Of a stretch of DNA of 64,000 nt, positions 8,728-64,000 are shown one piece after another (within the stretch, counting starts at the first letter, position 1; every line of letters begins with the position of its first letter). Position numbers and translations under genes: made by a program. Origin of the DNA: Ostreococcus lucimarinus (lineage: Eukaryota); assembly GCA_000092065.1 (NCBI GenBank), contig CP000583.1. The stretch is one strand, 5' to 3'. Below the pieces are notes generated by a model. The model had not been told where the DNA came from, did no database searches, and saw only the letters and a list, made by a program, of their open reading frames with translations.

Positions 8728-10614
8728 ATGGACTCCAAGTGGTTCACGCGCGATGTCGCGGAGCTGAGGACCTGGCGAATCATCGGCGCGTGCGCGTGGT
8801 CCACGCTCGCTATTTTCGTCGCCGTACGTCGCGCTCGCGTCGATTTGATTTCGATTTCGCCAACGTCCGCATTTGATTCTCGACGAAGGCGACGACTGAC
8901 GGAGCGCCATCGCGACGCGCGCGCACAGGCATACGCATACTTCACGTGTGTACACATTCTTGGTGGTGACTTCCCGCACTGGTCGCGCGTGGCCGTGGCG
9001 TTGACGTACGCGGCGACGCAACTGCCAGCGAGCGCGGCGACGGCGATGTGCGCGAGAGCGAGCACGGCTGATTTCGTGCCGAACGGCGAAAGGGACGCGT
9101 GTGGAATCGTGCGAGGGGAGAGAATCGGTGAACGGTTCGCAACGGCGATGATGCGGGATGGGATGACGATCGGGGCGTTGGGCGGCGCGTTTGCATGCTC
9201 GGGGAGTTTGGCGTGCTCGCTCGCAGCGAGGACGACGCCGACGCGGGGCTTGGTGGGGATGATGACGGTGAACGCGTCCGACGCTACGTTCGCAGCGCAA
9301 TTTGGCTGTGTGTTGGGGGTGATGACAGTGGTGAACTTTTGGTTCAACGATGGTTTGGTGGTGAAGTTTTCATCGGTGCAGCGACCGCGCGGGTTGCGGT
9401 TGAAACGCGCATTTGCGCCGTGCGCTCTAAGTGGATTGAAGCGTTCCCTTTATGCGTGCGTGGTGCATATTTTGGTGGTAATTGCGAGTCGATTCCTCGT
9501 CCAGCTCAGCGCGAAATCGTCTCGAGGTTTGTTCTTGGGGTCGATGTCGTGTTGGGGCGCTGGGGCGCTCGCGAGCGCTTCGTGGGCGCTCGCAATTTTC
9601 TGCGCCGAGATCGTGCACACCGAGCGCTATGAGTTCAGACCGCAAAGTTTGACGCAAGGTCCGAAAGTTGCGAGCGAACCTCTGATGGCGGCTTTGCATT
9701 ATTTCGAAGTTCCGTTCGTGCAGCACTTGGCGTTTGCAGACTTGTGCAACGTCGCCGAGAGCGGTGGACGCGGACGGCGCCAGCTCATCTACGGCGATAC
9801 CCCCGATGCGGCGTGGTCTGTGGTGATATCGATCGCTCTCGCGCCGTTGGCATCGATTTCGCGTTCGGTGAACAAGGCGATGGACCGCACTATGTTGGCG
9901 GCGTTGCGAGACACGGATGCGGATGCGGCGCAAAGGATTAGTGAAAAGTACGCGCAAATGAATACGCCAAAGCCCAAATTTCGACACGAGAGCGCGCAGA
10001 CGCAACAAGCGTGGAATGCGTTGCGTCAAAGCGAGGTGCTCTCGACCGATGTTGCGGCGCGTGAGTTGTGCACGGTGGTCAAGGCGTACGGGCAATTGGC
10101 GATTTGGGGCGCGCGCGCTTCGTCTTCGCTCGCCGTCGCCGCGAAAAAGGAAGATGTTCGCGGAAACGCGCGTTCGATCAATCCGTCGCTCAGTGCGATT
10201 GTGCGAACGTTACTTACGGCACAATTAGCATGTCGGACGATCATCGAGCAAGGTTCTCCTCCCGTGCGCGCCTCCAGTGGGTTCACCTCTAGCGATTTGG
10301 CGTCGACGTCAAAGGCGAATTCCATCGTCGCGAAGCGAAACGAGATCATCAACAACGTCTTGTACGTTTTAGGAATCACCGCCACCAATAGAAATGATGC
10401 AAACGGTGCTGTGACGCCGGCTTTCACGCCCGCAGTGGAGACTGCGAAGAGAATATCGGACACCGTGGAGATCGCTTTGGGCGCGCTCGTCGTCGAGTAC
10501 GGCGACGACGTCAAAGTCATGCTTCGCGAATCCGAACAATTCGGGCCGCCAGAGTTCGGCACACCGAACGAGCTGTTTGATGCCTTAGAAACAATCGCCA
10601 CCGACTTGGCGTGA
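8728..10614 (+). CDS. Predicted multipass membrane protein of unknown function
   Basis: A 628-aa ORF with several hydrophobic segments (LAIFVAV, VVHILVVIASRFLV, WALAIFCAEIV) and an Ala-rich soluble C-terminal half. I recognised no family signature. Confidence 0.35.
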   Translation: MDSKWFTRDVAELRTWRIIGACAWSTLAIFVAVRRARVDLISISPTSAFDSRRRRRLTERHRDARAQAYAYFTCVHILGGDFPHWSRVAVALTYAATQLPASAATAMCARASTADFVPNGERDACGIVRGERIGERFATAMMRDGMTIGALGGAFACSGSLACSLAARTTPTRGLVGMMTVNASDATFAAQFGCVLGVMTVVNFWFNDGLVVKFSSVQRPRGLRLKRAFAPCALSGLKRSLYACVVHILVVIASRFLVQLSAKSSRGLFLGSMSCWGAGALASASWALAIFCAEIVHTERYEFRPQSLTQGPKVASEPLMAALHYFEVPFVQHLAFADLCNVAESGGRGRRQLIYGDTPDAAWSVVISIALAPLASISRSVNKAMDRTMLAALRDTDADAAQRISEKYAQMNTPKPKFRHESAQTQQAWNALRQSEVLSTDVAARELCTVVKAYGQLAIWGARASSSLAVAAKKEDVRGNARSINPSLSAIVRTLLTAQLACRTIIEQGSPPVRASSGFTSSDLASTSKANSIVAKRNEIINNVLYVLGITATNRNDANGAVTPAFTPAVETAKRISDTVEIALGALVVEYGDDVKVMLRESEQFGPPEFGTPNELFDALETIATDLA

Positions 10615-14106: not shown

Positions 14107-16059
14107 CTATGGGTCGCCGACGATCTTTTGCCGTTTCGCCGGCGTCGTCGACGTCGAACGTTTTTGCCGCGTTTTCTGCCATCGCAGCCGTTGTCGTTGG
14201 TAAGTCAAGTTCTCGATGACTTCGCTCGACAGTCCGTAATCGTCGTCTTCCGCGTCTTCCGCGACGTGTCGCGGCGCCGTTTCTAATCTCTTTTCTTTTT
14301 TCCTCCTGATCCTTGTTTCAGCGGCACGCTTGGCCGGGTCCAACATGCGTCCGTACAAATCTCTTCGGCCCTTCGCGGTATCTCTGATTTGCGCGCTGAA
14401 CGCTTTGTATTCCTTACTCGCGGACTCTTTACTTTCAATGTAATCGAGGCGTGCCTCGACTTGACGATAACGAGCCTCGGTGGGCTTTCCCGGATAGAGC
14501 ACAACCATGATAATGTAATGCACGCGCAACCATACGATTTCTTCTTTTGAAGGACGTCTAATTTCTCCAACCTTCAACGGTGCTTTTTCATCCTTCTTTT
14601 TGAAAAGGGTATCCGGCCACCATTGTCGTTCGTCGTCGAAAACGTGCTGAATCGTCGCCTCATCAACCGGGTTGCATGCAAACATCTCAGCCGCCTTGTC
14701 CACTTCCAAATCGTCGTCTTCTATACCCGTGAGTTCGCTGCGAATATCGCTGATGTCAGTATGCGTGATACCCAAGCCTTTGATACCAGTCAACATCGTC
14801 GCCAGCATGACCCAGGCGCGTTTATTCGTTGGTTGTACCTCGACGCACGTCGCGATCGACTCGAGCATAATTCGTCTCATCTGCTCAACGTTTGCTTTTT
14901 CTTTTTCTCCAGCTAGTAGCTTCCACAGCATCATCAACGATGTGTTCGACGTCGGATCGATTCGCAGCACAGCCTTGCACGCGTTGGTTACTTCTAGTCG
15001 AAAGGCGTCCGAGTCCAAAGTTGAGCCTTTCGGATGTCGCGTCTGCATGGCGTTCATCAAGAGTTCCGCGTACGCTGCGTTTACGTCCGCATCGTTGGGG
15101 TTCTTCATCAAGCACTTTGTCAGTACTTCTCTCGTTCTCAGAAAGCTGCCTTGAAAAGCTTCAACCTGCGCCAACGCCACCGCGCACGCGGCATCGCCTT
15201 CATCTAAACGAATCGCCTCTTGCAACGCCGCCTTGGCCTCACCGCCTAATTTCACCGCCTCGACGTCATCCACGGGTTTGTGATGTTTACTCCCCGGCCG
15301 CCACACGAGTGGTAGCACCCTATCTCCATCGTCCGATAACCCTGAAAACCTAATCGCGCGCATCCTTCGCACCCAACGTAAATGCCGCAGCAGCGCCGTC
15401 GTCTTCGCCAACGGGAATTTCGTATCGTCTCGCACGGGATTTTTCGGCGATTTTTTCCGTCGCTCTCGGAGCACGGCAATCGCGCCTTCGATATCATCAT
15501 CGTCAACTAAAAGTCTCGCCGCGCGTTCCATCGTATCCGCGTCGCTCCGCGCGCTTCCCACCGCGCTCAGCGTCTTGACGCGCTCCCGCACGCGCGCTTC
15601 GTCCATCCTCGTCGACGCCGCGACGCGATACTCGCTCGATCCCGCCATCGCTTCCTCGCTGATCAGCGTCTCCAGCGCGCAGTACAGCACCTCACGATCG
15701 ATCCAAGACCGCTTATCCGAAACGCCAGCCGCTCCTCGCGCTCGGTCTCGCGTCTCCGCCTCGCGCGCGCCGGCGCCGCTCAGCGTCCCCATCGTCGCCC
15801 TGAGCATAGTCACCGCGCACAGCGCCGCCCGCGCGCGGTCGCCTCTTCCGCACGCATCGCGAAGCAACGCAATGAGGCTTCGCGCGACGTTCGACGCGCT
15901 TCCGCACCGCGACACGAGCGTCGACGCGCATAACTCGGTGGATTCCTGACGAACCGCGCGCAGGCGCCGACGCAAATCGCTGCGAGCGTCGTCGAAGCTC
16001 GCGAACGCGCGCACGGCGACGGGAAACGTGCGCTCGTGTTCGTGGTGTCGAGCGAACAT
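14107..16059 (-). CDS. Hypothetical 650-aa all-helical (TPR/HEAT-like) protein, unknown function
   Basis: Uninterrupted minus ORF of ordinary amino-acid composition, unlike the R-rich antisense artefacts. Low-complexity basic C-terminus. No family signature recognised. Confidence 0.45.
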   Translation of the reverse strand: MFARHHEHERTFPVAVRAFASFDDARSDLRRRLRAVRQESTELCASTLVSRCGSASNVARSLIALLRDACGRGDRARAALCAVTMLRATMGTLSGAGAREAETRDRARGAAGVSDKRSWIDREVLYCALETLISEEAMAGSSEYRVAASTRMDEARVRERVKTLSAVGSARSDADTMERAARLLVDDDDIEGAIAVLRERRKKSPKNPVRDDTKFPLAKTTALLRHLRWVRRMRAIRFSGLSDDGDRVLPLVWRPGSKHHKPVDDVEAVKLGGEAKAALQEAIRLDEGDAACAVALAQVEAFQGSFLRTREVLTKCLMKNPNDADVNAAYAELLMNAMQTRHPKGSTLDSDAFRLEVTNACKAVLRIDPTSNTSLMMLWKLLAGEKEKANVEQMRRIMLESIATCVEVQPTNKRAWVMLATMLTGIKGLGITHTDISDIRSELTGIEDDDLEVDKAAEMFACNPVDEATIQHVFDDERQWWPDTLFKKKDEKAPLKVGEIRRPSKEEIVWLRVHYIIMVVLYPGKPTEARYRQVEARLDYIESKESASKEYKAFSAQIRDTAKGRRDLYGRMLDPAKRAAETRIRRKKEKRLETAPRHVAEDAEDDDYGLSSEVIENLTYQRQRLRWQKTRQKRSTSTTPAKRQKIVGDP

Positions 16060-18906: not shown

Positions 18907-21194
18907 ATGGCGACGGCGTCCATCGACGCCCTCGGGCCGAGCGAGCGCGACAGCGTGCGCGTGAAGATACGCGTGCATCCGAGCGGCGAACACTTCGTGC
19001 GCGTGCCGAAGACGGTGCGCGAGACGACGCGAACGCGACGACGCGAAGCGAAGCGAGGGGACATCTTAAAATAACCGACGCGAGCGCGCGGCGGCGCGGT
19101 GACGATCGCGGCGGCGAGGCGGAGGCGCGAAAACGGCGCGCGGCGAGGCGTTCTCGAGGACTGACCGAGCGACGACGGCGACGATCGCAGGCGCTGATGC
19201 CGGCGGTGAAGCGAATCGTGGAGGGCGTCTCGGGCGTGCCGGCGAACGCGCAGCGGTTGCTGTGTCGAGGACGCGTGCTCGCGGACGAAGCGTCGATGGA
19301 GAGCGCGCGAGTGGAGGATGGAGACACGCTGCTGCTGGTGACGCGAGCGCCGGAGACGGAGGCGAATCCGAATTTGGCGAGGGATCCGCACGCGCCGGAA
19401 AACGCGGAAGCTCGCGGAAACGGACGAGGCGAGGGGACGATCGGGGACTTGTCGCAGATGATAACGTCGTTACTCACGGCGAATCCAGCGATGTTAGGGG
19501 CGGTAGGACCGGCGGGGGGGGCGGTGACCGTGGAGTTTAGCATCGGCGGACCGCCGATGGGGGGCGGGGGGGCGCGAGCTCCGGCGGCGGGTCAACGCCG
19601 CGAAGAGCGGGCGGCGGGCCGGGGTGGGCGTGGACAACCCACGAACGCCACGGCGACGACGGCGGTGCAGCAAAACACGCCCGAAGAGACCTTGCGTAGA
19701 TATCTGCAGAACGTTTTACGGTTGTTGCGCGGTTTACAAGTGCGCTCGACGCCGTTGTCCACGCCGGGTGATGGAAACTCGGTCGCGAGCGAGGACGCAT
19801 CTCGGACGATAGAGCAGCGTCCCATACATTTTGGCGTGCAATGCGATGCGTGTGAGGTTATTCCCGTCCGAGGGACGCGGTACAAGAGCGTGGCTCACGA
19901 CGATTACGATCTGTGCGAGCGTTGTTTCTTCGCTGGTCGAGGCGCCGCGTGCGGACCGTACGCGAAGCTCGACTTGCCGTTGCCGGCTGGTTTACCCCCA
20001 GTCGTTCAAAACGACGATGAAACGGACATGAATCAAGGCACAACACGTGAACAACGCAGTGAAGCCGATGTGGATACTCTCGGTGGCATGTTGAGCACGG
20101 CGGGAGAGATCGCTCGTCAAGCCGCACCGCTCATCGATGTCGTCGCGGCGAGATTCGCTCGAGACAGTAGGCAAAACACAGTCGAGACGCAGGCCGCGAA
20201 CTTGCAAGTCGCCAGTCTAATGCATTCAGTCGGCGCGCTTTGGTGTGAGCTCGCGCGATGCATGGCTGTCGTGCCACCGCCTCCAGGCGTCATGACACCA
20301 CAGGGTGCCGCGATCGCCGGCGACGACATCAACAACGCCCAAAGTTTTTTTAGCTATCCGCAGGTATCTTACATCGCTAATTCAGGTGAGTTTCCGCACA
20401 CTCGACCGCCTGGGATGCCATTGCATACCCAAGACGGCCTTTTTGTGCAAGGAAACCCTCAAGCTCAGGCTGTGAGACCTGTAGGCGTCATGCATGTCAT
20501 GCACCAGGTGCATGGATTGCAGCAAGGCTTGGAAGGTTTGCCGCCAGAGCTTCGCGAACTGCTGATGCGTCAGGCGGCGCAAGCTACACCAGCGCCAGGT
20601 ACTAATCCTGCCGCCTCTGCCGCTACGACTGAGGCGCAGCAACCGCCGCCGCCTTCTCAAATGGTCAACCCGCACGGTCGTCGGCAAGCGCAAGCGCAGT
20701 CTTCACAGAGAGCGTTGAGTCGATTTTTGGGATCTGTACTTAGGGCAATTCCGAGTCCGAGCTTCATGACGTCGCAAGCTGATCACACCATCGACGCGAC
20801 GACACAAAGCGGCGGTATTCAAATCCCTACCGTCCCCGCGCATCGGGATTCAACGACTCTCGCGCATGATTTGAACTCTGCGGTGACGGGCGCGGCGGGT
20901 CAACGCCCTCCAGTGGCGCCGAGTCAACCCGTCGGCACGGTCCCAACGAGCGCGACGAGCGCAAACGACAGCATTTCTCGCTCTGGACAAAACGAAACGC
21001 CGAATCGCGCTCGAACGCGTGGTGATTCCAAGGAGGAGGACGCCAATGGGCGCGCGGCAAAGGCGTCCAACACTGGGAACGGCATGTCTCCCGCCGCGAG
21101 CGCCGCTCACCTCGCGAGAGATCAAGCGACGAAATCGAACTTAGGAGCGAGCACTTCGCACGTCACTCGAAATGAGGAAGACGACAAAGAATAA
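18907..21194 (+). CDS. Ubiquitin-like domain plus ZZ-type zinc-finger protein with a Pro/Gln-rich C-terminal region; two exons
   Basis: Exon 1 18907..19014 (MATASIDALGPSERDSVRVKIRVHPSGEHFVRVPKT) and exon 2 19191..21194. The intron 19015..19190 has a GTGCGC donor and CTGAC 26 nt before the CAG. Splicing reconstitutes a complete ubiquitin fold (..VRVPKT|ALMPAVKRIVEGVSGVPANAQRLLCRGRVLADEASMESARVEDGDTLLLV). The ZZ finger is CDACEVIPVRGTRYKSVAHDDYDLCERCF. Track ORF 18102..21194 includes a non-coding 5' extension. Confidence 0.65.
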
Positions 21195-22373: not shown

Positions 22374-23097
22374 CCCAGCCTCCCTCGCCTCGCCTCGCGC
22401 GCCTCGCGCGCCGCGCCGCGCGCGCTACAAGAACTTCTTCCTCGGTCGTCCGTACCGATCGTCGTTCGCGTCCTGCGATCGTCGTCGTCGTCGTCAGTCG
22501 TCGGTCGATTCGATTTAGGTTCGTTCGATCCCTCGCCCGTTCGCCGCGTCGCGCCCGCGCGCGCGCGTCGCCCCCGCGCGCGCGCCGCCCGCGCGCGCGC
22601 ACGCCTCGCGTCGCCTCGCGTCGCGCACGCACGAAATCCCTGACGGCGCCGCGATAGATGAGCGCCGGGACGAAGACGCCGAAGACGGCGAAGAGCCCGA
22701 TCGTTCGCGGCGTCAGGCGGAACGCGCGCTCGATCGTCTCGCGCGCCGCGCCGTTGGCCTCGATGAAGGCGTTGGGCTTGAGCCCGGTGGGGTCGGCGCC
22801 GGCCATCGCGCGCGACGGCGACGCGACGACGCGCGGGGGTGTGCGAGCGCCAGAGCGGGACGCGGCGGGGACGACGGGACGACGGCGCCCGCGGACGCGA
22901 TCGCGCCCGCGCGTCGGCGACGAGACGACGCGCGCGGACGTCGGCGACGACGCGACGCGCGCGGACCCGCGCGCGGGCGCGACGCGACGACGCGGGGGGG
23001 AGAGGATTCGGCGTCGGGATTCGGGACGGGGACGTTCGCGTCGCCGAACGGCGTCGACGCGCCGGGCGACGGCGACGCGGGCGCGGAGAATAAGAGT

Positions 23098-31059: not shown

Positions 31060-32625
31060 CTAGACGTATTTCAAGTACGTATCGAGGTGCACGCCGAGGT
31101 TTTGTGCGAGTCTTTCGGCTAAATCACGAGAGATGTTGCATTGGTACAGCCCACCCTCCATCGCGCTCCCGCGGTTGATGGAGAGCATTCCGAGCTGCGT
31201 CATGCTCGAGATTTGCATAAAGACGTCGGCGCTGAGGAGCTCCTCCTCAAGATCTGCGACTTCAGCGCCGTGTTCATCGCATGCTGAGCGTGTGATAAAG
31301 TGAAACCACGCGATAAGACGTTCGAGCTTGAAGACACGTCGTTTATCCACGGCGGCTTCAGCGGCGGCGGCTCGTTCTCGATCTTGCGCGTTTCGATCCT
31401 TGCGCTTGGCCCTTGCCACGTGCCCTTCTATTTGACCGCCAAACATGCGCTTGTCCACCTCATCAGAGTTGTGCGAGCACAGAAATGCTGCGACTAATAA
31501 GAATTTCGTCAGACGCGGGATCTCGAAATCCAAACGTCCACCCGCGCCGCTTCCCGTGGCGTCGCGCCGCACCGGCCATTCGCCGCGACCGAGAGCCAAC
31601 GCCGCCGGGCTCAGCGGCACGGTTAATCCCGTGTGCACGTTCGGTTGCTCCCGCTTCGGCGCCGACGACGAACCTCCGTCTCTCGCATTAGCGCACTCAT
31701 CTCCTTTCGTCGATCCTTTCTTCGAGTTCAACGCCGCGTACAGCGCTCGAGGTTCGGGAAGCGGATCGCCCCGCGCGCGCGCTTCCTCGTACGGCTTGAC
31801 GTACTGCGCCCACAATGGCGCCACAGTGGCGCGCAGCTCGTGTAAATTCCTACACGTCGCCGTGAACGTGTTCAGCATAACACCTAAGAACCCATTGTAC
31901 AGCATCTCGTCCGCATCCGACGGGCGTTCCTTTAACAAGATGTACCGCAGCTCCTCTCGAGAGTACGCCGGAAAGTAAACGCCCTCGTACGGCGTCGTCC
32001 CCGACGCCGAACAAAACGTATCCCAACCCTGTTCACCGATGAAAATCACGATCACCTTCCGACAACTCAACTCCGCGAGTCGCAAAAACGCATTCAACAC
32101 CGGTTCACCTCGCCACTGTAACATTCTCTGCGCCTCGTCGACGACGACGTAACACGCCCGCGCGCCCGGACTCGCCGGCAAGTGCGCGCGTAAAATCTCC
32201 ACTAAATCACTAAACCTATCGCACTTCAGCGCCTTTTTCACCTGCTCTGCGCTCGCACGTCTCAAACTCTCGCTCGACCGCACCAAATACGGCGTCAGCT
32301 CCTCCACCACCGCCTCGTACAACAGCTTCGGCGCGTGCTCCGTGGCGCACGACGCGTACGCCCACGGCCGTCCGCTCCTCCCGACGACGTCCCGCACGAT
32401 CGACGTCTTCCCCGTCACCGGCGGTCCGTGGACGTACATCGCCGGATGATCGTCCCTCGCGCCTCCCAGCGCGCGCACCAGGCCCTCGATCGACGCCTTC
32501 CGTCCTCCCCAGCGCGCGCACGCGTCGCGGATGAATCCTTCCTCGTCCCGTTCGATCGCATCGCGCGACGCGCGCGCGTCGTCGTCGTCGCTCGCGTCGC
32601 CCATCGCGACGTCATCGACGCGCAT
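31060..32625 (-). CDS. ORC5: Origin recognition complex subunit 5 (ORC5)
   Basis: AAA+ Walker A MYVHGPPVTGKTS, Walker B CYVVVDEAQ, and an ORC5 C-terminal region (RLTKFLLVAAFLCSHNSDEVDKRMF). Start at Met codon 32623..32625 (MRVDDVAMGD). The track ORF continues as an R-rich leader to 32955, abutting the RPS6 ATG. Confidence 0.7.
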   Translation of the reverse strand: MRVDDVAMGDASDDDDARASRDAIERDEEGFIRDACARWGGRKASIEGLVRALGGARDDHPAMYVHGPPVTGKTSIVRDVVGRSGRPWAYASCATEHAPKLLYEAVVEELTPYLVRSSESLRRASAEQVKKALKCDRFSDLVEILRAHLPASPGARACYVVVDEAQRMLQWRGEPVLNAFLRLAELSCRKVIVIFIGEQGWDTFCSASGTTPYEGVYFPAYSREELRYILLKERPSDADEMLYNGFLGVMLNTFTATCRNLHELRATVAPLWAQYVKPYEEARARGDPLPEPRALYAALNSKKGSTKGDECANARDGGSSSAPKREQPNVHTGLTVPLSPAALALGRGEWPVRRDATGSGAGGRLDFEIPRLTKFLLVAAFLCSHNSDEVDKRMFGGQIEGHVARAKRKDRNAQDRERAAAAEAAVDKRRVFKLERLIAWFHFITRSACDEHGAEVADLEEELLSADVFMQISSMTQLGMLSINRGSAMEGGLYQCNISRDLAERLAQNLGVHLDTYLKYV

Positions 32626-32953
32626 CGACGCCCGCGCGTCGCTCGCCGCGCGCGGTCGCGCGTCGCGCGCCGTCGTCGTCTCTCGCGCCGCGCGCGCGCG
32701 CGGCTGTCGACGCGCGTTCGAACGCGCGACGGCCGACGCGCGACGCGCGCGCACGTGGGGTTCGCGCGAGCTCCGATGCGTGCGCGTCAACCAACCGAAT
32801 GTCCGAAATAAATACAGATTCAAAACAGCACGCGGACTGTTTGCGCGTGCGATGCACACGCGTCCGTGTTTCTTCGCGGCGCGCCCCCGAGACGCGACGC
32901 GCGCGCGGGCGCGCCGCGCCGTCGCCCTCTTTCGACGACGCGCGCGCGCGACC

Positions 32954-34039
32954 ATGAAGGTGCGTCCATCGACGGGCGACGCGGGATGACGATGGGGATG
33001 ATTACGGCGCGCGACGACGGACGGCGCGCGACGACGGACGCGCGACGACGCGCGCGGACGCGACGGCGGACGCGAACGACGCGGGTTTGCGCGACGCGAC
33101 GATCGGGGACTGACGACGACGACGACGACGACGCGCGTGATCCACAGCTCAACATCGCGAACCCGCAGACCGGGGCGCAGAAGAAGATCGAGATCGTCGA
33201 TGAGAACAAGCTCCGATGCTTCTACGATAAGCGCATCTCCGCGGAGGTGGAGGGCGATGAACTCGGTGATGTGCGTGTTAGGGCTTTGCGATGCGACGCG
33301 ACGCGATGAAGCCGAGGACGCGAACGATGCGCGCGCGCGGACGCGACGGTGGTGCGCGTGGATGATTGATGAAGATAATGATGATCGTGAATTCGTACTG
33401 ACCGCGCGTGTGATGCGCTCGTTTCGTCGATAGGAATGGAAAGGCTACATCTTTAAGATCATGGGTGGCAACGACAAGCAAGGGTTTGGGATGAAGCAAG
33501 GCGTGTTGACGAACCAACGCGTGTTCTTGCTCATGTCTCAGGGCACGAGTGGTTTCCGTGGGAACGGTCGCCGTAAGGGTGAGCGCCGTCGTAAGGCGTG
33601 CCGTGGTTGCATCGTCTCCCAAGACATCGCTGTTTTGAACTTGCTCATCGTCAAGCAAGGCGACGCCGAGGTTCCGGGTTTGACGGATACCGAAGTCGCG
33701 CGCTTGCGTGGTCCGAAGCGTGCGAGCAAGATTCGCAAGCTCTTCGCGTTAACGAAGGAAGACGACGTTCGTCAGTACGTGAACACGTACCGCCGTGAGT
33801 TTGAATCCGCGACTGGCAAGAAGAAGTCCAAGGCGCCGAAGATTCAACGTCTCGTCACCCCGCTCGTCATCAAGCGCAAGCACGCGCGCGCGGCGGCGAA
33901 GAAAGTTAAGCAAGCCAAGTCCAAGGCGGAAGCCGCGGAATACCACAAGGTCCTTGCCCTCCGCATCCGAGAACAACGCGAGCGCAGAAGCGAATCCCTC
34001 GCCAAGCGCCGTGCGTCCTCCGTCGCGAAGAAGGCGTAG
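32954..34039 (+). CDS. RPS6: 40S ribosomal protein S6 (eS6), three exons
   Basis: Exons 32954..32959 (MK), 33148..33270 and 33434..34039. Introns 32960..33147 and 33271..33433 both start GTGCGT, carry CTGAC 30 to 35 nt before the AG, and end CAG/TAG. The spliced product [88 protein letters not shown].. is colinear with eS6 throughout. Confidence 0.93.
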
Positions 34040-35128: not shown

Positions 35129-37489
35129 CTACGCGAGATAAACGTACATTTTTCGATCGCTCGGATCCCTCTCGATGTATTCACGCTCAATCAAGGTCTC
35201 GATGTGTTTTTTGATATCCGCGGGTGTGGGCATGAAACGGTTCCTGACTTGAGCCGTGACTTCCATGACGATGCTGTTGTGATCGAGCCGCTTCTTCGCC
35301 TTCATCACGCGCACAATGGTGGCCTCGATCTGCGGCTTACGATCGTCTACGATTTTGCTTTTCGTCAACGATCTTTCGTGATCGTTCTCTCGCTTGGCAG
35401 AAATGGACAAGATTTTGACCTTGGTCGTCTTAGATGAGAAGTCTCGATTGACTTGAAACGAGTCTCCCAAGCTCACATCTTTCCCAGCGGGCAACTTTGT
35501 GAGAATATTTTTCCCCTTGACGCACGAAAGCGCTTGCAAGCAACCCTTGAGCTCGTCGCCTATCATTCCAGTAAGATCCGAAATATCTTTTGTGGTCAAA
35601 GTCTCGTGCGTGTTGAAAAGCATGAGGACACACATGTGCAGCGTCGACGCAGAAATTTCATATTCACCGCTCGCAAACCTAGCCTTAATGTCGGCCCGGC
35701 CCATGTTCGCCTGCCAAGTGAGCTTTCGACCGGCGTGACGCGAGAGGTAGAAATTTTCAAAAACCTTGCACGTCCTCTCGCATTCATGGGGTAAGTTGAT
35801 CGGAGTTTTATGCACCTTCAAGGGCCAGGCTCCGGTGGTCAACACCGAGACATTTACTTCCATCGATCCCGAGCCTCTTGAGTAAACACCTTCAAACTCC
35901 CTCGTCAAGTCACCCGAAGTGAGCATGTCGTTGAACATGCCCTCCATTCTACTCGTGAATGTAAATCCACAATCGTCCTTGAGTTTACCGATGAACGCGA
36001 GCTCGTTATCGTCGCTTGCGGAGCGCTTGTTTAGCAACCTCTTCGACAAGTGTTGGCGATAATAATTCTCAAACACATCCTTCTCGTGAAATAGGTGGAA
36101 GAGCCCCATCGATCGGTTCAGGATGATCTCCAGTTCGCTCTGACTCGCGTCTTTTGACGATTTCCTCAACATGTGATCCAAATAAAGCGACAAATACTCG
36201 GGTGATCTAGGATTCAAGTTTGCGACGAGTTGATACGCCTGATTGCACTGCGACTCGATGAGGCGATTATTTGCAAACGCCTCGATCAAGATTGTGTCAT
36301 ACTTCTCCTTGAATTTGAAAAGCTCTTCGACAAACTGTGTCGGATTCTTTTCATTTTCTAAATCATTCACGATCGACTTGCCGATTTCCTTAAGATGATT
36401 GAACATCACGTCTGGAATACCCTCGAGATCGTCCATCGTCGAAAACAGCGAGTACATGCGACGCAAGTTTTCGATCTGGTTCGCTCGAAGCATGTGCACC
36501 ATGCCACTCGTAGCGTTATGCAATAGTGATTGTGACATCTCCTTCAATAACTGGTTGCGCGCTTGCTCAAGTAAAAGGCCTGTTGTTCGAGGAGCCATGT
36601 AAGCTTCACTTCGGTCCTTCTCTTGCGCCAGTCTCGCCTCCGCCATCCTCAAGAACGTCGGGCAGTCGTCGATATCGATTCGTTTCTGCGCCACCGCCTT
36701 GTAGTAAGATCTTGTCTCATCGAGCATTTTAACTTCGAACTCATCTACGTAAACAGATTCGTGCAAAGTGAGTAACATGGACGTCACCTTTTGCAACGCG
36801 TCCCTATCCACGCTCTCGCCGTCGCGCTCGCGGCGGATCAAATCTAACATGCACGAGTGCATCCGTCGTCTAATGCGTGGATTATTTACCACACACTCCC
36901 TCCAAAGCGTTATTACGAGATCCCCCACGGGTTCTAAGTTCGCGTTCCCGCTCCGCTTCAAGTGCACGCGATCGAGATAGATGAAGACGTCGGTCAGCAT
37001 TTGCGCGCTCTTTCTGTGCCGCGCAAATCGCGTCTCCAAATCCTTCAAAAATTCAACATCCCCCACCACGTCCGCGATCTTACTCGCCACGTGCAAGCAC
37101 AAATGATCTGTTACCGCGTCGCTTATGGTGTTATACAGCGCATCACCCTGTTTCCGAAGCACCAACGCGTACGCCTTACCGTACAGCTCCTCGTACGACA
37201 ACCCTTCGCTGCTCAGGTTCAACAGCTCCGTCGTCGCCGTTCGAAGCGTTCGAAGCGTCGTCTCCACGAACGACGGATCGGCGTCCACGCGATGTCTGAA
37301 CGGTTCCAACGCCGTCGTCGTCGCCGTCGTCGCCGCGCGCGAGCGCGCGCGCGACGCCTGTCCCGACGCGTCGCGTTTCCGTCCCACGACGCCGTCGCGC
37401 TCGCGCTCGCGCGCGCGCGCGTCGCTCGCCGCGCGCGCGCGCGCGTCGTCGCCGTCGACCGCGTCGCGCGCGTTCGCCGCGCGCGTCAT
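35129..37489 (-). CDS. Cullin (CUL4-like) with a C-terminal neddylation/winged-helix domain
   Basis: The N-terminal helical bundle matches CUL4 (GLSYEELYGKAYALVLRKQGDALY; MLTDVFIYLDRVHL). The C-terminus IVRVMKAKKRLDHNSIVMEVTAQVRNRFMPTPADIKKHIETLIEREYIERDPSDRKMYVYLA includes the conserved neddylation Lys context (VMKAKK). R/A-rich N-terminal extension. Confidence 0.82.
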   Translation of the reverse strand: MTRAANARDAVDGDDARARAASDARARERERDGVVGRKRDASGQASRARSRAATTATTTALEPFRHRVDADPSFVETTLRTLRTATTELLNLSSEGLSYEELYGKAYALVLRKQGDALYNTISDAVTDHLCLHVASKIADVVGDVEFLKDLETRFARHRKSAQMLTDVFIYLDRVHLKRSGNANLEPVGDLVITLWRECVVNNPRIRRRMHSCMLDLIRRERDGESVDRDALQKVTSMLLTLHESVYVDEFEVKMLDETRSYYKAVAQKRIDIDDCPTFLRMAEARLAQEKDRSEAYMAPRTTGLLLEQARNQLLKEMSQSLLHNATSGMVHMLRANQIENLRRMYSLFSTMDDLEGIPDVMFNHLKEIGKSIVNDLENEKNPTQFVEELFKFKEKYDTILIEAFANNRLIESQCNQAYQLVANLNPRSPEYLSLYLDHMLRKSSKDASQSELEIILNRSMGLFHLFHEKDVFENYYRQHLSKRLLNKRSASDDNELAFIGKLKDDCGFTFTSRMEGMFNDMLTSGDLTREFEGVYSRGSGSMEVNVSVLTTGAWPLKVHKTPINLPHECERTCKVFENFYLSRHAGRKLTWQANMGRADIKARFASGEYEISASTLHMCVLMLFNTHETLTTKDISDLTGMIGDELKGCLQALSCVKGKNILTKLPAGKDVSLGDSFQVNRDFSSKTTKVKILSISAKRENDHERSLTKSKIVDDRKPQIEATIVRVMKAKKRLDHNSIVMEVTAQVRNRFMPTPADIKKHIETLIEREYIERDPSDRKMYVYLA

Positions 37490-43417: not shown

Positions 43418-45568
43418 TCAAAACCAAGGCTCGTCGAACGGCGTCGCCTTGACGACAATATTTGCCTCGGCGGGGACCGCCAATTTCCCTGGATGTCTAA
43501 GCATGACGAACACTTTCGTTTTGCCGCGACTAAAGTTTTCAGTGAGCATTTTCACTGCGTTGGCCTGAATCAAACCGGACGCTAGACCGACAGATGCCGC
43601 TGGTGCGGATACAGAAGTAATATGCCCGATGGTGTCGCCGAAGACGTCGCCGAGGTTCACGTCGCTTCGATGCTCCGAGCGAAGCGCTTTGTCCTTCTTC
43701 GACCATTGCGAGAACATACCCGACACCGTCCGATCACGACGGCGCGTCGTGTCGTCCGTCTTTTTGACACACCAAGCGTCGCGTTGTGCTTCGTTGGGGA
43801 AGAAGATCTCCGCACCGAGCGTCGGTTGACCAGACCACGGACATCGCAGGGCGACGCGAACCATCGCGTCGCGCGGATGCGAATCGCGTTCCAACTTCTC
43901 ATCGCGCACTCGAAGCACATTTCTCACCTTTACGAACGGCTCGGCGTGTCGCACGAGCGCTAAATCGCACTGAGAAACCTTGCTTTTTGGTTTCGCTCGA
44001 ATGTCGTCGAGAATATCGTCGAAAATCTCCAGACGCTTGTCCGCTCCAGCTTGGGTGTCGAGGTAATCGTCCGGGAATAGGGCGCGCGCAAAACGTTGCG
44101 CACACCACGACCATTCAGTGATTCCCACCGGACGTGCGCCGGTTTGGCACACGCCGTGCCAAACGGGAAGCATCCAAGACGAAGAAACGATCAGAGTGTA
44201 CCCTTCTATCGCTGTCACACCTCGATTGATGAGCGTCGCCGAGTATGATTTGACACCGACGGCGGCCGTTTCCTCCCATGGTCGCTCGAGCGCAGCCGCG
44301 CGCGATGCGCGTCGACTTTCGTCGTACTCGGCTTGCGTCGGCGCAACTTCCGTCGGCACCCGCATTTCACTCGAATCGGTTTGAACGCCCCAAGCAGCCG
44401 CACGAGCGTCTGGACAAACGATTCGACGGATGCCTCGGGTAGTATGCGCGCTCGAGTAAAAATCTAAATCCGGAGCCAGTTTCTGCACAATCTCGAAAGC
44501 TTTAGCACCGATGATTTCGATGCGCGCGAATGCGTCACTTTCTTCCACTTCTACGTCAGCTTTCGTGTTTGTCGCGACTCGCACCGCGACGGCGTCACGA
44601 AACGCTTCTGACGCCGACTCTTTCGCGCTCGGGTGCACCCAAACGTGCGCCTCGGCGACGCTCAACGTCTCCTCTCTCGGCGTACAGTACACCAGCGCCG
44701 GACAAATCACGCGACGTTTTGAATCCACAACGTGAATCGCAATCGCGCGTTCTCCGTCCTTGAACGCGCGCAAGTTTAGCGCTTTCTTTTCAGCCGCCGT
44801 CTTTGCTAAAACTTTGTGCACGTCGGTTCGGGCGCCCTTCACGACGAAACACGCGTTGTACGAGGAATCGTGGGCGAGCGCGGCTTGCGATATCGAACGC
44901 ATGATGAATCGCCAACCTCGACCTCGCCCCGGTCTCGCGGCGGGGACGACCCATCCCCACCCGCGAGGCTTTCGCATCGCGAACCTGCGAGCGCGCGCGC
45001 CGTCAGTCATCTCTCCAACATTTCGCCTCGTCTTCAAAAATCGAGCTTCCAAACGCCTCAGTCGATGTACCGTGCGGTAACTCTATACGCTCGTCTCCAG
45101 CGAACGCCGAAACGTTCTCGGATTGGCTGGGCGCGTGATTTCGTCATCACCGGCGTCTCTCGCGTTCGCGCGCGTCGCCTCGCGTCACCCTCCCCACCTC
45201 TTCGCGTGCCACGCGTGCGCGCGCAGCGCCTTCACCGCCGTCCCGCCTCCCGCGCGCGTCCTCGCCGCGTTCAGACGCCCTCGTCGCCGCGCGCGTCGTC
45301 GACATCCCTCCGTCGTCGCGTCCTCGCCCGCCGCCGCCGCGCGTCGCCGTTTCAAATTCGGCCTTCGCCGCGTCGCTCGCGGCGCGTGCGACGTCGCCCG
45401 TCTTCGCGCGTGTCTCGCCAGCGTCTCCACGCCCAGCGCGCGTCGTCCCTCGATCGCGCGCGTCGTCGCGCGCAGCTCGCGCGCGCGCGCCGCGACGAAA
45501 TCCCACACGCGCACGTAACGCGGCGTCGCGCTCGCGTCGCGCGCGTCGGCGACGACGACGACGTCCAT
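43418..45568 (-). CDS. POP1: RNase P/MRP protein subunit POP1, two exons
   Basis: Exon 1 45198..45568 (MDVVVVADARDASATPRYVRVWDFVAARARELRAT..ARHARRRATSHA..KALRAHAWHAKR) and exon 2 43418..44984 (FAMRKPRGWGW.. POPLD-like GYTLIVSSSWMLPVWHGVCQTGARPVGITEWSW..FPDDY). Intron 44985..45197 on the minus strand has a GTGGGG donor, ACTGAC 22 nt before the CAG, and phase 2. Splicing restores the conserved W-H-A-K-R-F-x-M motif. Confidence 0.75.
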
Positions 45569-52634: not shown

Positions 52635-53526
52635 ATGTCCTCCGTCGACGACCTTCGACGCGCGTTGACCGCCGTAGGCGGTGAACGACGAGAGGTACGA
52701 CCTCGTTTTTCTCGAACGACGCGACGGCGACGATAAAAACCGACCGACACTGACGACGCGACTCGTTCGACGGAACGCGCAGGCGAACGAGAGATTACGC
52801 GCGCTTGCGTCGAGTAGACGCGCGAAATCCGCGCACACGGTGCGAAATGCGAAAGCTCGTCGGGTGATGCGCGATGAGGACGGAGCGGACGATCGCGAGA
52901 TGGATGAGGCGAGCGCGGTACCGAGGCCGAAGGCAGAGGCGGGACAGCGCGAGCGACGTCTGTTCGCGGGACTTCTCGGGACGCTGAGAAAGAGTAAATC
53001 AAACATAGAAGAGAAGGAAAAAGAGGTTTTGGCGAAGAGAAAGTCCATCGAGGCAGCGGTTTCGGGAAAGAACGAGGAGATTAGTCGGGAATTGAAGGAG
53101 GCGCAGTACAAGGCGTTTTTAGAAAAGCGCGAAGCCGACGAAAGGAAAAAGTTTGAGTTGGATTTGAAGTTTAAGGAGACAGAGGGAGCATTGATCGAGG
53201 CAGAATACGAAGAGATGAAATCTAAAATACATGATGGGGGTATATTGACCACGACTGAGCCCGTGCTCGTGTATAAGCCGAAGAATCCCACGAGCGAAGA
53301 CGCCGCAGCTTCGCAAATGAGTTTGGAAAAGTTGGACGCTTGGCGCGCGTCGCAACTCGAAAGAATCAGAAAAGCTTTGGAAACGATTCGCAGAAGGCGA
53401 GAAGAGATTGCCGAGCGCCGCGCACAATCAAAGGCGAGGGGTGAAGCGCACGATGACGTCGATGTCGAGGACGCAGAGGAAGGCGACGACGCGATGGAAG
53501 GTGACGCCGGCGACGCGGCTGCGTAA
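52635..53526 (+). CDS. Pinin/SDK/memA-domain protein (pinin-like), two exons (model tentative)
   Basis: The SDK/memA core RRLFAGLLGTLRKSKS is followed by a long charged coiled coil. Proposed exon 1 52635..52694 (MSSVDDLRRALTAVGGERRE), intron 52695..52782 (GTACGA donor, CACTGAC 28 nt before the CAG), exon 2 52783..53526. The frame is preserved across the junction. Confidence 0.5.
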
Positions 53527-54667: not shown

Positions 54668-54942
54668 GATGAGTTTCGCCAGTTGCGTGCATCTCGTCAG
54701 CTTTTGCGCGGGCGTGGCGCACCGTGCGAGGTCCTGCGCGCAGAAAGTCGTCGCGTCAGAGAGTTGGATAAAAAGCGATGGGGGCGACGTTCGGACGCGG
54801 GTCGCGCGCGCCGAGACGCGTTTATACCTGGGGTATCGCTTTAAACGCCTCGGTGAAGGACATCGCGCGCGCTCGCGCGAGTTTTAGTCGAGCGCAGGCG
54901 CTGATCAATGGAGTATTTACTACAACGTGAAGATTGAGAATA

Positions 54943-55877
54943 TTATTCGCTGGCTTGCGCGGCGGCCTGTGCTTCAGCCTTCTTCGCCATGCGCTCCGCC
55001 GTCTTGCGCTTTTCCCGCTCCAAGAACTCTTCTTGCAACTCCTTCGCAGAGGCAAGCTTGGAGAGCAAACCCTTGTACATGGCGAGATCCCCGTTCACCT
55101 TCTTGAAAGACAATCCGCCGGCTTGCGCGAGCGCTTCGAGCGCCTTCGGATCCGTCGCCTTGGCGAGTTCCAACATTCTGAAGATACCGATCGCGATGTA
55201 CTTGGTGTACATGAGCTTATTCTCCGCACTCTTCGCCGCCATCGTCGCGAAGATCGGGTTCGCGCTCAGGCCATCCACGCCGCCGGCCGACGCCGCGAAC
55301 GCGCCGAGCGCCTCCGCGTCCGCGCGCGTCTTCGCCGCGTCCTCCCCGAGGGCGCCCAAAAACGCGTTGAAAATTTTAACCTTCTCCGTCTCGCTCGGGA
55401 ATCCCTCGTAGAGCTGATCGAACACGCTCACGAATCCCAGCGACGCGAGTTCGCTGTATTCGCTCTTCGCGTTGTACTTCGCAAAGTGTCCCTGCACGAG
55501 CAGCTCCTGCGTGACGGTCGACCACACCGACGGGATCGGGTACGGGTACGCCTGCAAGAACTTCGCCTTCGTGTCGCTCACCGTCACGTCTGCGTCGCGT
55601 AAACCCGCGATCGCGTCGTCAGTCTCGCGTTCGCGTCGCGCGCGTCGTTCGTCGCGTCGCGCGTCGCGCGTCCCGCGTCCCGCGTCCCGCATCTCGCGAA
55701 CCCTCTATCCATCCATCTCGCGTCGTCGCGTCGTCGTCGCGTCGTCGTCGTCGCACCGTAGGCGCTCGCGCGGACGGCGACGGCGGAGGCGCGTCGCGCG
55801 ACGCGCGATCCGCGCTCGACGCGCGGGCGCGCCGCGCGCGGGGTCAGGACGGAGGCGGTCGAACGCGCGGCGGACAT
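54943..55877 (-). CDS. THF1: THF1 / Psb29 (thylakoid formation 1) with a plastid transit peptide, two exons
   Basis: Exon 1 55757..55877 (MSAARSTASVLTPRAARPRVERGSRVARRASAVAVRASAY; S/A/R-rich). Exon 2 54943..55589 begins DVTVSDTKAKFLQAYPYPIPSVWSTVTQELLVQGHF, colinear with cyanobacterial Psb29 ([29 protein letters not shown]). Intron 55590..55756 on the minus strand has a GTGCGA donor, ACTGAC 25 nt before the CAG, and phase 1. Confidence 0.78.
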
Positions 55878-60901: not shown

Positions 60902-61483
60902 TTAAGCGACAATCATGTTGTTCGCCTCCGCGAAGCGCTTCTTTTCGGCCGCCGCCGCCGAGGCGTCCATCTTCGCCAACTTGGCCTCCTTCCACTTCGG
61001 GATGTAAAGCGGCTTCGGGCCCTTCGGCGCGCGCTTGTTCTGCTTCACCGGTTCCGAACCATTTTCCGCCAACCACTGCTTGCGTTCCGGATCCGCATCA
61101 ATGTACGGCAACGACGCCAAATCCAACCCGGCGCGCTTCGCCATCTCCTCCAACCCGAGCTTGTTGAGCGTCTTCAACGCATTGGTGGAGATGCGCAGGC
61201 GCACGTAGCGCTTTTGCTCCGGCCAGTAGATGCGCTTGTACTGTTATCGATAAAATATTCTCTCCGTCAGTCTCTCACTCACACACTCGTCCTGCGCGTC
61301 GCCAAGTCGTCGCGCGCGCCCGTTCAGGGTTTCAGGGTTGCCCCCAGCCTTTCGCCATCGTCCTCGCGCGTCACGCACCTGTAAGTTAACCTGCTGCAGC
61401 GTCTTGTTACGAATGTGCGAGAACGAAACAGTGCGACCGTTGTTCGCCTTCTTCCCCGTCAACATGCACTTGCGTCCGGACAT
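60902..61483 (-). CDS. Ribosomal protein bL28 (organellar type), two exons
   Basis: Exon 1 61379..61483 ([35 protein letters not shown]) and exon 2 60902..61240 ([33 protein letters not shown]..). Intron 61241..61378 on the minus strand has a GTGCGT donor, ACTGAC 29 nt before the CAG, and phase 0. The product is colinear with bacterial L28 ([64 protein letters not shown]). An in-frame upstream Met at 61546 is an alternative start. Confidence 0.7.
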
Positions 61484-62001
61484 CCCGTGAAGGTCTGTTT
61501 CCGCGCGCGAAATCGCGACCGTCAGTCCGCCATCCAAATCACCCAATCGCGCGCGCGAGCCCGTCCATCGTCATCGTCCGCACCGCCGCGAACGCGCGCT
61601 AAATATTTCGCCGCGCGCGTTTCCGCGACGTTCACGACGCCCCGCGCGCGAACGCGCGCGCGCGACGCTCGCATTCGCGCGCGGGTCGCCCGACCCCAGC
61701 CTCGCGTCGTCGCGTCGCGACACGTACTCTCCACGACGAGCGGCGCGCGCTTGACCGCGGCGGCGCCGCGCATCATCGTTCGCTTTAATCCATCGTTATT
61801 CCCGGTGACGAACGAGTTCGTCGGGCGCGCGAGGGACGTCGTCGAGGACGCGAACATCGTGCGCGCGGTGTGACGTCCGCGCGCGAGGGTTTTCGTCGAT
61901 CGATCGTCTTTGGTCCGTGTTGCGGTCGTGCGCGAAAGGGAGACCGAGGTCGCGCGCGCGCGCGAGTTCGCGACGCGACGGGGCGCGCGATCGTCGCGCG
62001 G

Positions 62002-62427
62002 ATGGACGCGTCGCGAGATGGGATCTCGAAGCTCATGCTCGCGGAGAAAGAGGCGCAGGCGATCGTGAGCGCGGCGCGCGAAGGTGCGAACGCGAGGGCG
62101 ATCGAAACGACGGGGCGACGGACGACGGGGGGAACGCGTCGCGGTGACTGACGACTGCGCGCGCGCGATGCGCGGTGAAACGCAGAGAAAACGGCGCGGT
62201 TGCGCGCTGCGGTGGAGGAGGCGAAGGGGGAGATCGCGGCGTACAGGGCGGAGCGGGAGGCGCGGTACGCGCGCATGGTGGCGGAGCAAACCGGGAACAA
62301 GGCGGAGACGGATTCGAGGTTGAAAGCGGAGTACGATGAGGAGATGGCGAAGCTTCAAGCGAAAGTGAGCGCGGCGAAGTCGACTGTGGTTCACGATTTG
62401 CTCTCGGCGGTGAAAGATGTGAAATGA
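62002..62427 (+). CDS. V-type H+-ATPase subunit G, two exons
   Basis: Exon 1 62002..62083 (MDASRDGISKLMLAEKEAQAIVSAARE+G), intron 62084..62185 (GTGCGA donor, TGACTGAC 36 nt before the CAG, phase 1), exon 2 62186..62427 (..KTARLRAAVEEAKGEIAAYRAEREARYARMVAEQ..KSTVVHDLLSAVKDVK). Colinear with V-ATPase G (VMA10). Confidence 0.7.
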
Positions 62428-62720: not shown

Positions 62721-63404
62721 TTAGTCCTTGCCCGTGGCAGAAGTGATGTCGTGAATACTCGACCTTCGCTTATTATCCTTCTTGCTCATGCTGTTAAGCC
62801 TGATGAAGTATTTCTGAGCGTGGGATGCCACTTGAGTGGGCGTTCGTGAGATGACAAAGTTTCTGCTGATACTTCGCCAATCTCCCTTGCCGAACTTGTT
62901 CAAACCGAGAAGGAACAATTTGTGCTCTTCTTCAGTCCATGGAACGCCTTTGCGACGCTCTTGTTCGCCAGTCTTAGGGGCAGCTTTGGACTTTTTCGCC
63001 GCCGGCGCCTGCACGGGCGCGGGCGCCGGCGTTGGCGGCGGAGCCGTCGCCTTGAGAGGTTTCGCCGGCGCAAAGTTGAAGCTCACTTCCGCGGTGACGT
63101 GGTGATCACTGTCATCGTCATAGTCTGGAAGCTGTACGAGACCAGCTTCGATATTTCGCACGTCTTCTTCCAACTTGCTGAATCGATTCTTCAAGTCGTG
63201 GACGCCCTTTTGCGGCATCTGTTCTTGAAGTTGGCCCCAGTAATCATCGCCCGTGATGGGCCAAGACCCATCGTACTGCGCCAAACTCGTTTCAAAGAAT
63301 TTGTCCTCCTCAAACGTCCAGCTCACCGAGTCGCTCCCGAGCAACCCGAGGTTAGCGTACGTGAAACCGGCGTCGCCGCCGTAGCCAAAATCCAACGTCG
63401 ACAT
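62721..63404 (-). CDS. R-R-type MYB transcription factor (DIVARICATA-like; SANT plus SHAQKYF-class MYB)
   Basis: N-terminal SANT/MYB ([16 protein letters not shown]) and a C-terminal MYB with the diagnostic SHAQKYF ([48 protein letters not shown]). Confidence 0.8.
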
Positions 63405-64000
63405 GTTCGGCGTTTGTCGTTAATTTAATGAAGGTGAGAAAATGTGCGTTCGGTCGTCGAACAATGTGTTCGCTCGATCGATCTAGATGTGGTTCCTTAC
63501 GACGACAACGCGACTAGACCCGACGTCTAGCGCAAAAAATTGATATCAATCACTCGTCCGTCCTCTGTCGTTCGCGCGCGCGCCACGTGTCGTCAGTCAC
63601 TTCGCACTGTTTACCCATACGCCAATTTGGGATCTGATCTCGGTTCGTTCGCCTTCGCCGACCCTCCACGAGTCGAAACTCAAGAAATGACCCCCCGCCC
63701 CGGGAAAATCCCAGTGAAATCTTTCCGGGTGTCCGCGCGTTCGGTCCCCCGTTTCGAGGTTACCGCCGACGCCCGCCCCCCCCCCGCGCGCGCGTCGCCG
63801 CGTCCCGCCCCCCCCGCGCGCGCGATCGACGCTCAATCTTTCCCTCCACCGTTTCCGATCGTCTCCCAGGGCTCACCGCGTTCGCGCGCGCGTCCCCACC
63901 GCCCGCGCGCCGTCGCGAAATCCCGAGGGCGCGTCGCGTCTGATTCCGTTGCCGCACCTCGTCGCGACGCGTTCGCGCGTCGCGCGTCGCGCCTTTTCGC

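Follow-up and report, generated by a model that had tools for sequence, protein, structure and literature searches.

Verified introns of a 64,000-nucleotide Ostreococcus lucimarinus window share a rigid donor, branch box and acceptor layout already described for this genome

Several genes in a 64,000-nucleotide (nt) stretch of Ostreococcus lucimarinus DNA (contig CP000583.1 of assembly GCA_000092065.1; this whole stretch is hereafter called the window) appear to be split by short introns with strikingly uniform splice signals, which raises the question of whether these introns are real, what kind of intron they are and whether their signals can be used to uncover others. A preceding reading of the letters (the sequence-only reading) had proposed eight such introns, with GTGCG-like donors, a CTGAC box resembling a branch site and CAG or TAG acceptors. 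We found that all eight are real, that the window contains at least four more introns of this kind, and that the introns are, with a probability of about 95%, ordinary U2-type GT-AG spliceosomal introns of the bulk of this genome, which is intron-poor and rich in guanine and cytosine (GC). The window encodes, at 35129-37489 on the minus strand, a 786-amino-acid (aa) cullin identical to XP_001416954.1/ABO95247.1 of O. lucimarinus CCE9901, and its pinin-like gene (XP_001416671.1) is on the same contig as that cullin. Genes are densely packed in the window, the GC content of which averages ∼0.60 (range 0.52-0.71 in 2-kb segments), and placement of its introns in the normal, non-outlier class of this genome fits both this GC content and the intron type, on which the placement rests.

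To establish the junctions, we used evidence that is independent of the motifs, namely protein homology, orthologous loci and contigs resembling complementary DNA (cDNA), and by this evidence each of the eight introns is confirmed (Table 1, first eight rows; throughout, box-to-end distances are counted from the final C of CTGAC to the terminal base of the intron, and a slash marks a splice junction). The orthologous loci (L004-L010) represent at least three related Ostreococcus-like populations in marine metagenomes; two chimeric protein queries made from junction-spanning segments retrieved orthologues of THF1, pinin, UBL-ZZ, POP1 and Ndc1 but none of B15, and just one read-through open reading frame (ORF) for V-ATPase G. 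Of the two cDNA-type contigs, L011 (946 bp) is 99.8% identical to the window and L012 (914 bp) derives from a congener; together they cover transcript-based removal at three of the 12 junctions now known, those of bL28 intron 2 and both RPS6 introns. Removal of RPS6 intron 1 yields MK/LNIANP.., and the intron 2 junction reads ..LGD/EWKGY.., both in agreement with O. tauri XP_022838503.1. In L012, ATGAAG directly abuts CTCAAC and exon 2 is joined to exon 3, so that both introns are absent. The orthologous RPS6 introns in L009 carry GACTGACG, 25 nt and CAG (intron 1) and GTACGT, TACTAAC, 32 nt and TAG (intron 2).

The remaining six introns were settled in similar ways. The 147-aa ORF spliced over bL28 intron 2 is exactly the MMETSP transcript ORF of Ostreococcus 'lucimarinus' (UniRef100_A0A7R9XQ07), L011 skips from 61379 to ∼61244, and the Ribosomal_L28 Pfam profile (positions 1-59 of 60) bridges the junction. 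The spliced UBL-ZZ product matches positions 1-71 of 72 of the ubiquitin Pfam profile (a hidden Markov model) compared with 24-71 for exon 2 alone; in L010, where the orthologous intron has GTGCGT, GACTGACG, 25 nt and CAG, exon 1 is conserved, and because the conserved exon 1 and exon 2 lie in different frames there, the intron is required. Spliced V-ATPase G covers positions 3-105 of 105 of the V-ATPase_G Pfam profile, and an intron at the same place in L004 has GTGCGC, GGACTGACG, 19 nt and CAG. For POP1, the POP1_N Pfam profile bridges the junction WHAKR/F, the homologues P0191-P0197 read ..THVWHAKRFEM.. without a break, and the L004 orthologue has GTGCGT, GGACTAAC, 16 nt and CAG. The THF1 intron falls where transcript-type orthologues (P0164 and P0172) are contiguous (..RASSIY DVTVAD..); in L004 the orthologous intron shares this codon and phase (GTGCGT, GGACTGACG, 25 nt), and the L006 orthologue (9859-10079) has the intron without CTGAC. 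The pinin intron was the weakest case of the eight, with an exon 1 of 20 codons that lies outside any domain, and was settled by L004 and L006, in which exon 1 is conserved at the protein level and the intron occupies the same codon, with a GTGCGT or GTAAGC donor and with CTGAC present.

Table 1. Introns of the window: the eight proposed by the sequence-only reading, followed by the four additional ones.
Intron	Coordinates	Strand	Length (nt)	Donor	Branch box	Box to end (nt)	Acceptor	Remark
RPS6 intron 1	32960..33147	+	188	aag/GTGCGT	GGACTGACG	33	CAG	
RPS6 intron 2	33271..33433	+	163	GTGCGT	GTACTGACC	31	TAG	
UBL-ZZ gene	19015..19190	+	176	GTGCGC	GGACTGACC	25	CAG	
Pinin-like gene	52695..52782	+	88	GTACGA	ACACTGACG	28	CAG	
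V-ATPase subunit G	62084..62185	+	102	GTGCGA	TGACTGACG	33	CAG	
POP1	44985..45197	-	213	GTGGGG	TGACTGACG	17	CAG	
THF1/Psb29	55590..55756	-	167	GTGCGA	AGACTGACG	28	CAG	transit peptide/mature domain boundary
bL28 intron 2	61241..61378	-	138	GTGCGT	AGACTGACG	25	CAG	
Ndc1 nucleoporin gene	8824..8928	+	105	GTACGT	CGACTGACG	28	CAG	
Complex I subunit B15/NDUFB4	22473..22632	-	160	GTGCGT	CGACTGACG	20	CAG	
Esterase gene	54734..54827	-	94	cag/GTATAA	TCTCTGACG	21	CAG	exon 1 ATG 54863
bL28 intron 1	61495..61727	-	233	GTACGT	GGACTGACG	26	CAG	exon 1 ATG 61857

With the junctions fixed in this way, the proposed signals could be read directly. The eight introns (88-213 nt) have the donor hexamers that had been assigned to them (GTGCGT in three, GTGCGA in two and GTGCGC, GTACGA and GTGGGG in one each) and end in CAG in seven cases and TAG in one, as had been described. 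The statement that all carry CTGAC, usually as ACTGAC, holds as well: exactly one CTGAC is present in each of the eight, within ACTGAC in seven and within GACTGAC in six. The spacing had been given both as 20 to 40 nt and, more narrowly, as 22 to 36 nt; measured from the first C it is 20-36 nt, so that the broad range stands and the narrow one misses the short POP1 intron by 2 nt. CTGAC occurs 61 times over 128,000 strand positions, and the chance of finding it in a given 26-nt interval is ∼0.012; by our own arithmetic, its presence in eight of eight introns by chance has a probability of ∼5e-16, provided that the introns are defined independently of the motif.

What did not stand was the claim that these eight were all the introns to be found. 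We listed every CTGAC in the window, looked for a YAG (Y, pyrimidine) 15-40 nt downstream and, by this branch-box rule, reached four further introns of the same type (Table 1, last four rows), three of which expose a first exon that the ORF calls had missed. The Ndc1 intron, in a gene that matches the Pfam family Ndc1_Nup, had been hidden inside the ORF 8728-10614 because it is 105 nt long and in frame. In the orthologue in L007, exon 1 (MDARWFTRDVAEL..) is conserved and exon 2 lies in another frame, with an intron that has GTACGT, TCTGACG, 25 nt and CAG. The spliced B15 product of 73 aa aligns without a gap over ..VRDF/DAND.. to the final residue of Arabidopsis B15 (PDB 7a23 chain l; E = 3.4e-15). 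The 12-codon exon 1 of the esterase gene, MSFTEAFKAIPQ, is identical in L004, where the start of exon 2 (DLARC..) is also conserved; the L004 intron (∼11010-11100) has a GTGCGC donor and no CTGAC.

The fourth addition, bL28 intron 1, follows an exon 1 that encodes a transit peptide. The three-exon gene specifies a 194-aa protein, which starts MFASSTTSLARP..VKRAPLVVE/NLHGMSGRK and is collinear with O. tauri XP_022838513.1 (196 aa), and the orthologous intron in L004 lies at the same place, with GTGCGT, AGACTGACC, 21 nt and CAG. An alternative intron 1 (61495-61583; donor GTGCGG), preceded by an exon that begins MRASRARV, was considered and rejected: L011 and the O. tauri protein give the donor GTACGT at 61727 and an exon 1 from 61857. 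In L011, intron 2 has been removed and intron 1 is retained. The retained intron has in-frame stops, and the sole complete ORF begins MSGRKCML, lacks the transit peptide and is the 147-aa MMETSP form, which could be either an unfinished pre-mRNA or a real isoform.

A further site, 63565..63600 on the minus strand, has TGACTGACG, 27 nt and CAG and lies ∼160 nt upstream of ATG 63404 (ORF 62721-63404). Judged by these letters it is acceptor-like and possibly the 3' end of a candidate intron in the 5' untranslated region; a search for its donor gave no convincing one, and no transcript evidence was found for the site. Four other candidates were set aside. The site at 14738-14848 (-) is conserved coding sequence, that at 40516 (+) is antisense to an aminotransferase gene, that at 3090 (-) falls within an ORF of 619 aa with an equally long, unbroken orthologue, and that at 30335 (+), antisense to a zinc-finger gene, has GAG after it.

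Across the 12 introns, GT and AG ends are present in 12/12, CTGAC in 12/12, ACTGAC in 11/12 and GACTGAC in 9/12. Donors begin with GTGCG in seven and GTACG in three, the remaining two being GTATAA and GTGGGG, and the acceptor is CAG in 11 and, more specifically, CGCAG in seven. The introns are 88-233 nt long, with a GC content of 0.59-0.76 and 17-33 nt from box to end. The pyrimidine fraction between box and acceptor is 0.44, so there is no polypyrimidine tract, and AGs within 4-8 nt of the box are skipped in the UBL-ZZ intron and bL28 intron 2. Of the features that define U2-type introns, GT/AG ends and a CTRAY-type branch site (R, purine) 10-50 nt from the 3' end were found in all 12, and restoration of the protein upon removal was seen in the Pfam profiles that bridge junctions, in the B15 alignment and in the collinearity of RPS6 and bL28 with O. 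tauri, whereas the U12-type features ([AG]TATCCTT donor and TCCTTAAC branch box) matched in 0/12 introns. Introns and spacers (for example 22473-22632 and 32560-32760) are GC-richer than the coding sequence and contain low-complexity runs of (GACGCG)n and (GACGAC)n, the reverse of the usual arrangement of AT-rich introns in GC-richer exons.

Because motifs of this kind might be common by chance in a GC-rich genome, we considered whether the uniform layout could be an artefact of ascertainment, arising from the choice of GT..AG intervals that happen to contain them. Taken singly or loosely paired, the motifs are indeed unremarkable: the window contains 263 copies of GTGCG, the total for ACTGAC matches expectation (21 compared with 20.9), and the loose pair GTGCG..CTGAC..AG shows no enrichment (54 occurrences compared with 84.6±12.7 in dinucleotide shuffles). 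However, ACTGAC followed by its first YAG at 15-40 nt was observed 14 times compared with 4.25±1.96 in 200 shuffles (maximum 9), a 3.3-fold enrichment, and these 14 sites comprise 11 verified introns, one stretch of conserved coding sequence, one site antisense to the aminotransferase gene and the acceptor-like site at 63565-63600 (-). Likewise, nine of the 11 GACTGAC sites are in verified introns, which fill ∼1.5% of strand space, and a survey based on expressed sequence tags (ESTs) gave 87% for the box (PMC2483917). Since protein homology, orthologous loci or cDNA establish each junction without recourse to the motifs, the artefact is already refuted, and we give it practically no credence.

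The same counts show what carries the predictive value. Because the loose pair is not enriched, the donor was dropped as a predictor and the branch box with its YAG was kept; the information in these signals is the position of the box, not the donor. The suggestion that the pattern can predict hidden first exons therefore holds for the branch box, which led to four verified introns, and fails for the donor, which adds almost nothing. GTGCGT itself is scarcer than expected on both strands (41 copies compared with 62.7±7.8 in dinucleotide shuffles), and this shortage, together with the near-confinement of GACTGAC to introns, may mean that cryptic splice signals are selected against in exons.

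We next compared the introns with their orthologues, of which 11 were tabulated (the esterase orthologue in L004 was kept outside this table). Orthologous introns interrupt the same codon in the same phase. GT and YAG are kept in 11/11 and the box reads CTGAC in eight, CTAAC in two and neither in one, the THF1 intron of L006. The box-to-end distance is 16-37 nt, and even the short spacing of POP1 is conserved (17 nt in the window and 16 nt in the orthologue). Donors vary within orthologous families (GTGCGT, GTGCGC, GTACGA, GTACGT, GTAAGC and GTGAGG). Whole-intron identity between orthologues is 0.35-0.71, and because the signals are kept at this level of overall identity, they are under selection while the rest of the intron drifts. 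The THF1 intron of L006 and the esterase intron of L004 have neither CTGAC nor CTAAC, the nearest matches being ATTGAC and GCTCAC; the box is thus not obligatory, consistent with the published 87%. As a separate observation on V-ATPase G, the L004 gene has an extra 109-nt intron at 3357-3465 (-), after ..YAQLVAE, with GTGAGG, AGACTGACG, 28 nt and CAG, at a place where the window is uninterrupted (62186-62427). This is a gain or loss between close species of an intron with full consensus signals.

These comparisons also bear on whether a mobile, repeated family like the introners of Micromonas gave rise to the introns, in which case the motifs would be shared by common descent. That the introns might fall into repeated families had been raised together with the original proposal, and when they were compared no introner-like family emerged. 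The introns do share GC-rich (GACGCG)n and (GACGAC)n runs, and non-orthologous pairs have a mean global identity of 0.51 compared with 0.46 after shuffling. However, in an all-against-all comparison of 11 window introns (esterase excluded), exact matches reached at most ∼20 nt and the ∼70-80% matches of up to ∼130 nt were GC-rich and of low complexity. When each intron was compared with the whole window, the same low-complexity matches extended to intergenic and coding DNA on both strands. Further, only the three signal elements align between introns, and the introns are old because their positions are conserved between species. We therefore consider descent from a mobile family extremely unlikely. 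Micromonas introner elements (Worden 2009; Simmons 2015, PMC4540971; van Baren 2016, PMC4815162), which occur in a sister genus and also have recognisable branch points, closely resemble one another over their full length and are lineage-specific, whereas the window introns share splice signals alone and keep their positions. The BOC1 introns of Mamiellales (PMC3491373) are found in the same genomes, but are 40-65 bp long, AT-rich and without detectable branch or splice motifs; the window introns, at 88-233 nt, 59-76% GC and rich in motifs, do not belong with them.

The class to which the window introns most probably belong has been described. Irimia & Roy (2008, PLoS Genet; PMC2483917) surveyed 319 EST-confirmed introns of O. 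lucimarinus CCE9901 outside chromosome 2 and found ACTGAC in 87.2% and GACTGACG in 66.5%, a donor with the "atypical consensus GTGCGTG" (4.8 bits), a peak of branch-to-AG distances at 20-35 bp and a preference for CGCAG acceptors, in contrast to the intron-dense half of chromosome 2, where the signals are weak. The window introns come from the same genome and, with ACTGAC in 11/12, GACTGAC in 9/12, spacings of 17-33 nt and CGCAG in 7/12, show no substantive difference from that class. The view that the branch site is constrained far more strongly than in multicellular eukaryotes is borne out by the same survey, in which the top hexamer accounts for 87% compared with ∼8% in human and Arabidopsis. 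The rigid layout of donor, branch box and acceptor is thus correct, yet was already published for this genome in 2008. The donor preference extends to the GYGCGY class of Mamiellales, which is shared by Micromonas, Ostreococcus and Bathycoccus and has been studied from the side of the small nuclear RNAs (snRNAs) (bioRxiv 10.1101/2022.06.08.495308).

How such introns would be recognised can be outlined from three short, near-invariant elements: the donor G/GTGCGT, the box (G)ACTGAC(G) and the first YAG, usually CGCAG, 17-35 nt on. A standard U1 snRNA (5'-ACUUACCUG) would pair with GUGCGU at +1, +2, +5 and +6; position +3 would form a G-pseudouridine wobble, and the mismatch at +4 would be tolerated. 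The box would be bound first by SF1/BBP, after which the GUAGUA box of U2 would pair with ACUGAC and bulge its second A as the branch adenosine; the G ahead of this adenosine would then form a G-U pair where yeast has A-U. The 3' splice site would be the first AG past a steric exclusion zone (∼10 nt from the branch), reached without a polypyrimidine tract. By analogy with yeast, the branch point probably dominates recognition. Hemiascomycete yeasts (GTATGT donor, TACTAAC branch) are similarly intron-poor, with a near-invariant box, an atypical donor that mismatches U1 at +4, the first YAG after the branch as acceptor and no strong polypyrimidine tract, and two of the orthologous Ostreococcus introns even use ACTAAC. 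In contrast, the yeasts are a separate lineage and the likeness is convergent, and Ostreococcus has G rather than A before the branch adenosine, a GTGCGT donor and GC-rich introns.

A more radical explanation would be a second, specialised splicing machinery with variant U1 and U2 snRNAs complementary to GUGCGUG and GACUGACG, leaving the standard one to the introns of the outlier chromosome. Irimia & Roy (PMC2483917) raised this as worth exploring, yet thought it unlikely, and the C at +4 does mismatch standard U1. An Rfam scan of the window returned no RNA genes and hence no snRNA genes, so that the window is neutral on this point. Elsewhere, however, a survey of five Mamiellales with GYGCGY donors found a single strong U1 candidate with a standard pairing region and no compensatory change (bioRxiv 10.1101/2022.06.08.495308), and O. 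tauri yielded only single copies of the spliceosomal RNAs (cited in PMC2483917). Orthologous introns also interchange GTGCGT, GTACGA, GTAAGC and GTGAGC donors, and CTGAC and CTAAC boxes, which fits one tolerant machinery. We therefore regard a second machinery as very unlikely. Somewhat less remote, but still improbable, is a change in an early-recognition protein of Mamiellales (SF1/BBP, U2AF or U1C, for example), which would accommodate the rigid GTGCG and GACTGACG signals, the missing polypyrimidine tract and the standard U1; the partial splicing of bL28 would then be regulated and yield two differently targeted isoforms.

Several points weigh against the interpretation of these introns as ordinary U2-type introns with a standard machinery. 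The donor and box motifs are not absolute, as the GTATAA and GTGGGG donors and the two orthologous introns without CTRAC attest. The preference for GTGCG is puzzling, because in standard models neither U1 nor U6 offers a partner for the C at +4. Established spliceosome biology and the cited papers are the source of the proposed snRNA pairings and of the assignment of the branch adenosine, and the set of introns probably leans towards those that bear the motif, because the branch box was used to find some of them.

The consequences for annotation are more immediate. The expectation that several of these introns would escape ORF-based annotation proved right. Metagenome ORF calls begin inside exon 2 (P0169 and P0183) or read through the intron (P0007, P0163 and P0165), and the RefSeq pinin model XP_001416671.1 (219 aa; gene 52635-53526, +) starts at an internal Met and leaves out both the conserved exon 1 of 20 codons and the opening 28 codons of exon 2. 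An exact look-up of seven spliced products in a collection of 15 billion proteins, which does contain other CCE9901 proteins, found only bL28; the other six, RPS6 included, were absent. The gene models of 2007 appear to lack some of the window introns, as in the case of pinin exon 1, and in the window as a whole four of 12 introns were missing from the initial list and truncation affects at least one RefSeq model.

As a discovery about splicing, these findings offer little, because the consensus, its strength, its spacing and the contrast with the outlier chromosome have been known since 2008, and the follow-up question of U1 coevolution was answered in the negative in 2022 (bioRxiv 10.1101/2022.06.08.495308). 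What they add is the junction-level verification of eight introns, four more introns, evidence that the RefSeq pinin model is short of its first exon, and six spliced products whose exact sequences are absent from the protein collection. Their use lies in annotation, since ORF callers of the prokaryotic style routinely truncate or read through such genes in the compact genomes of Mamiellales and in marine metagenomes. Here, the rule of branch box plus YAG recovers hidden first exons at ∼80% precision, among them transit-peptide exons, on which the predicted localisation of the protein depends, and its application genome-wide might show that the reference annotation lacks a substantial share of first exons.

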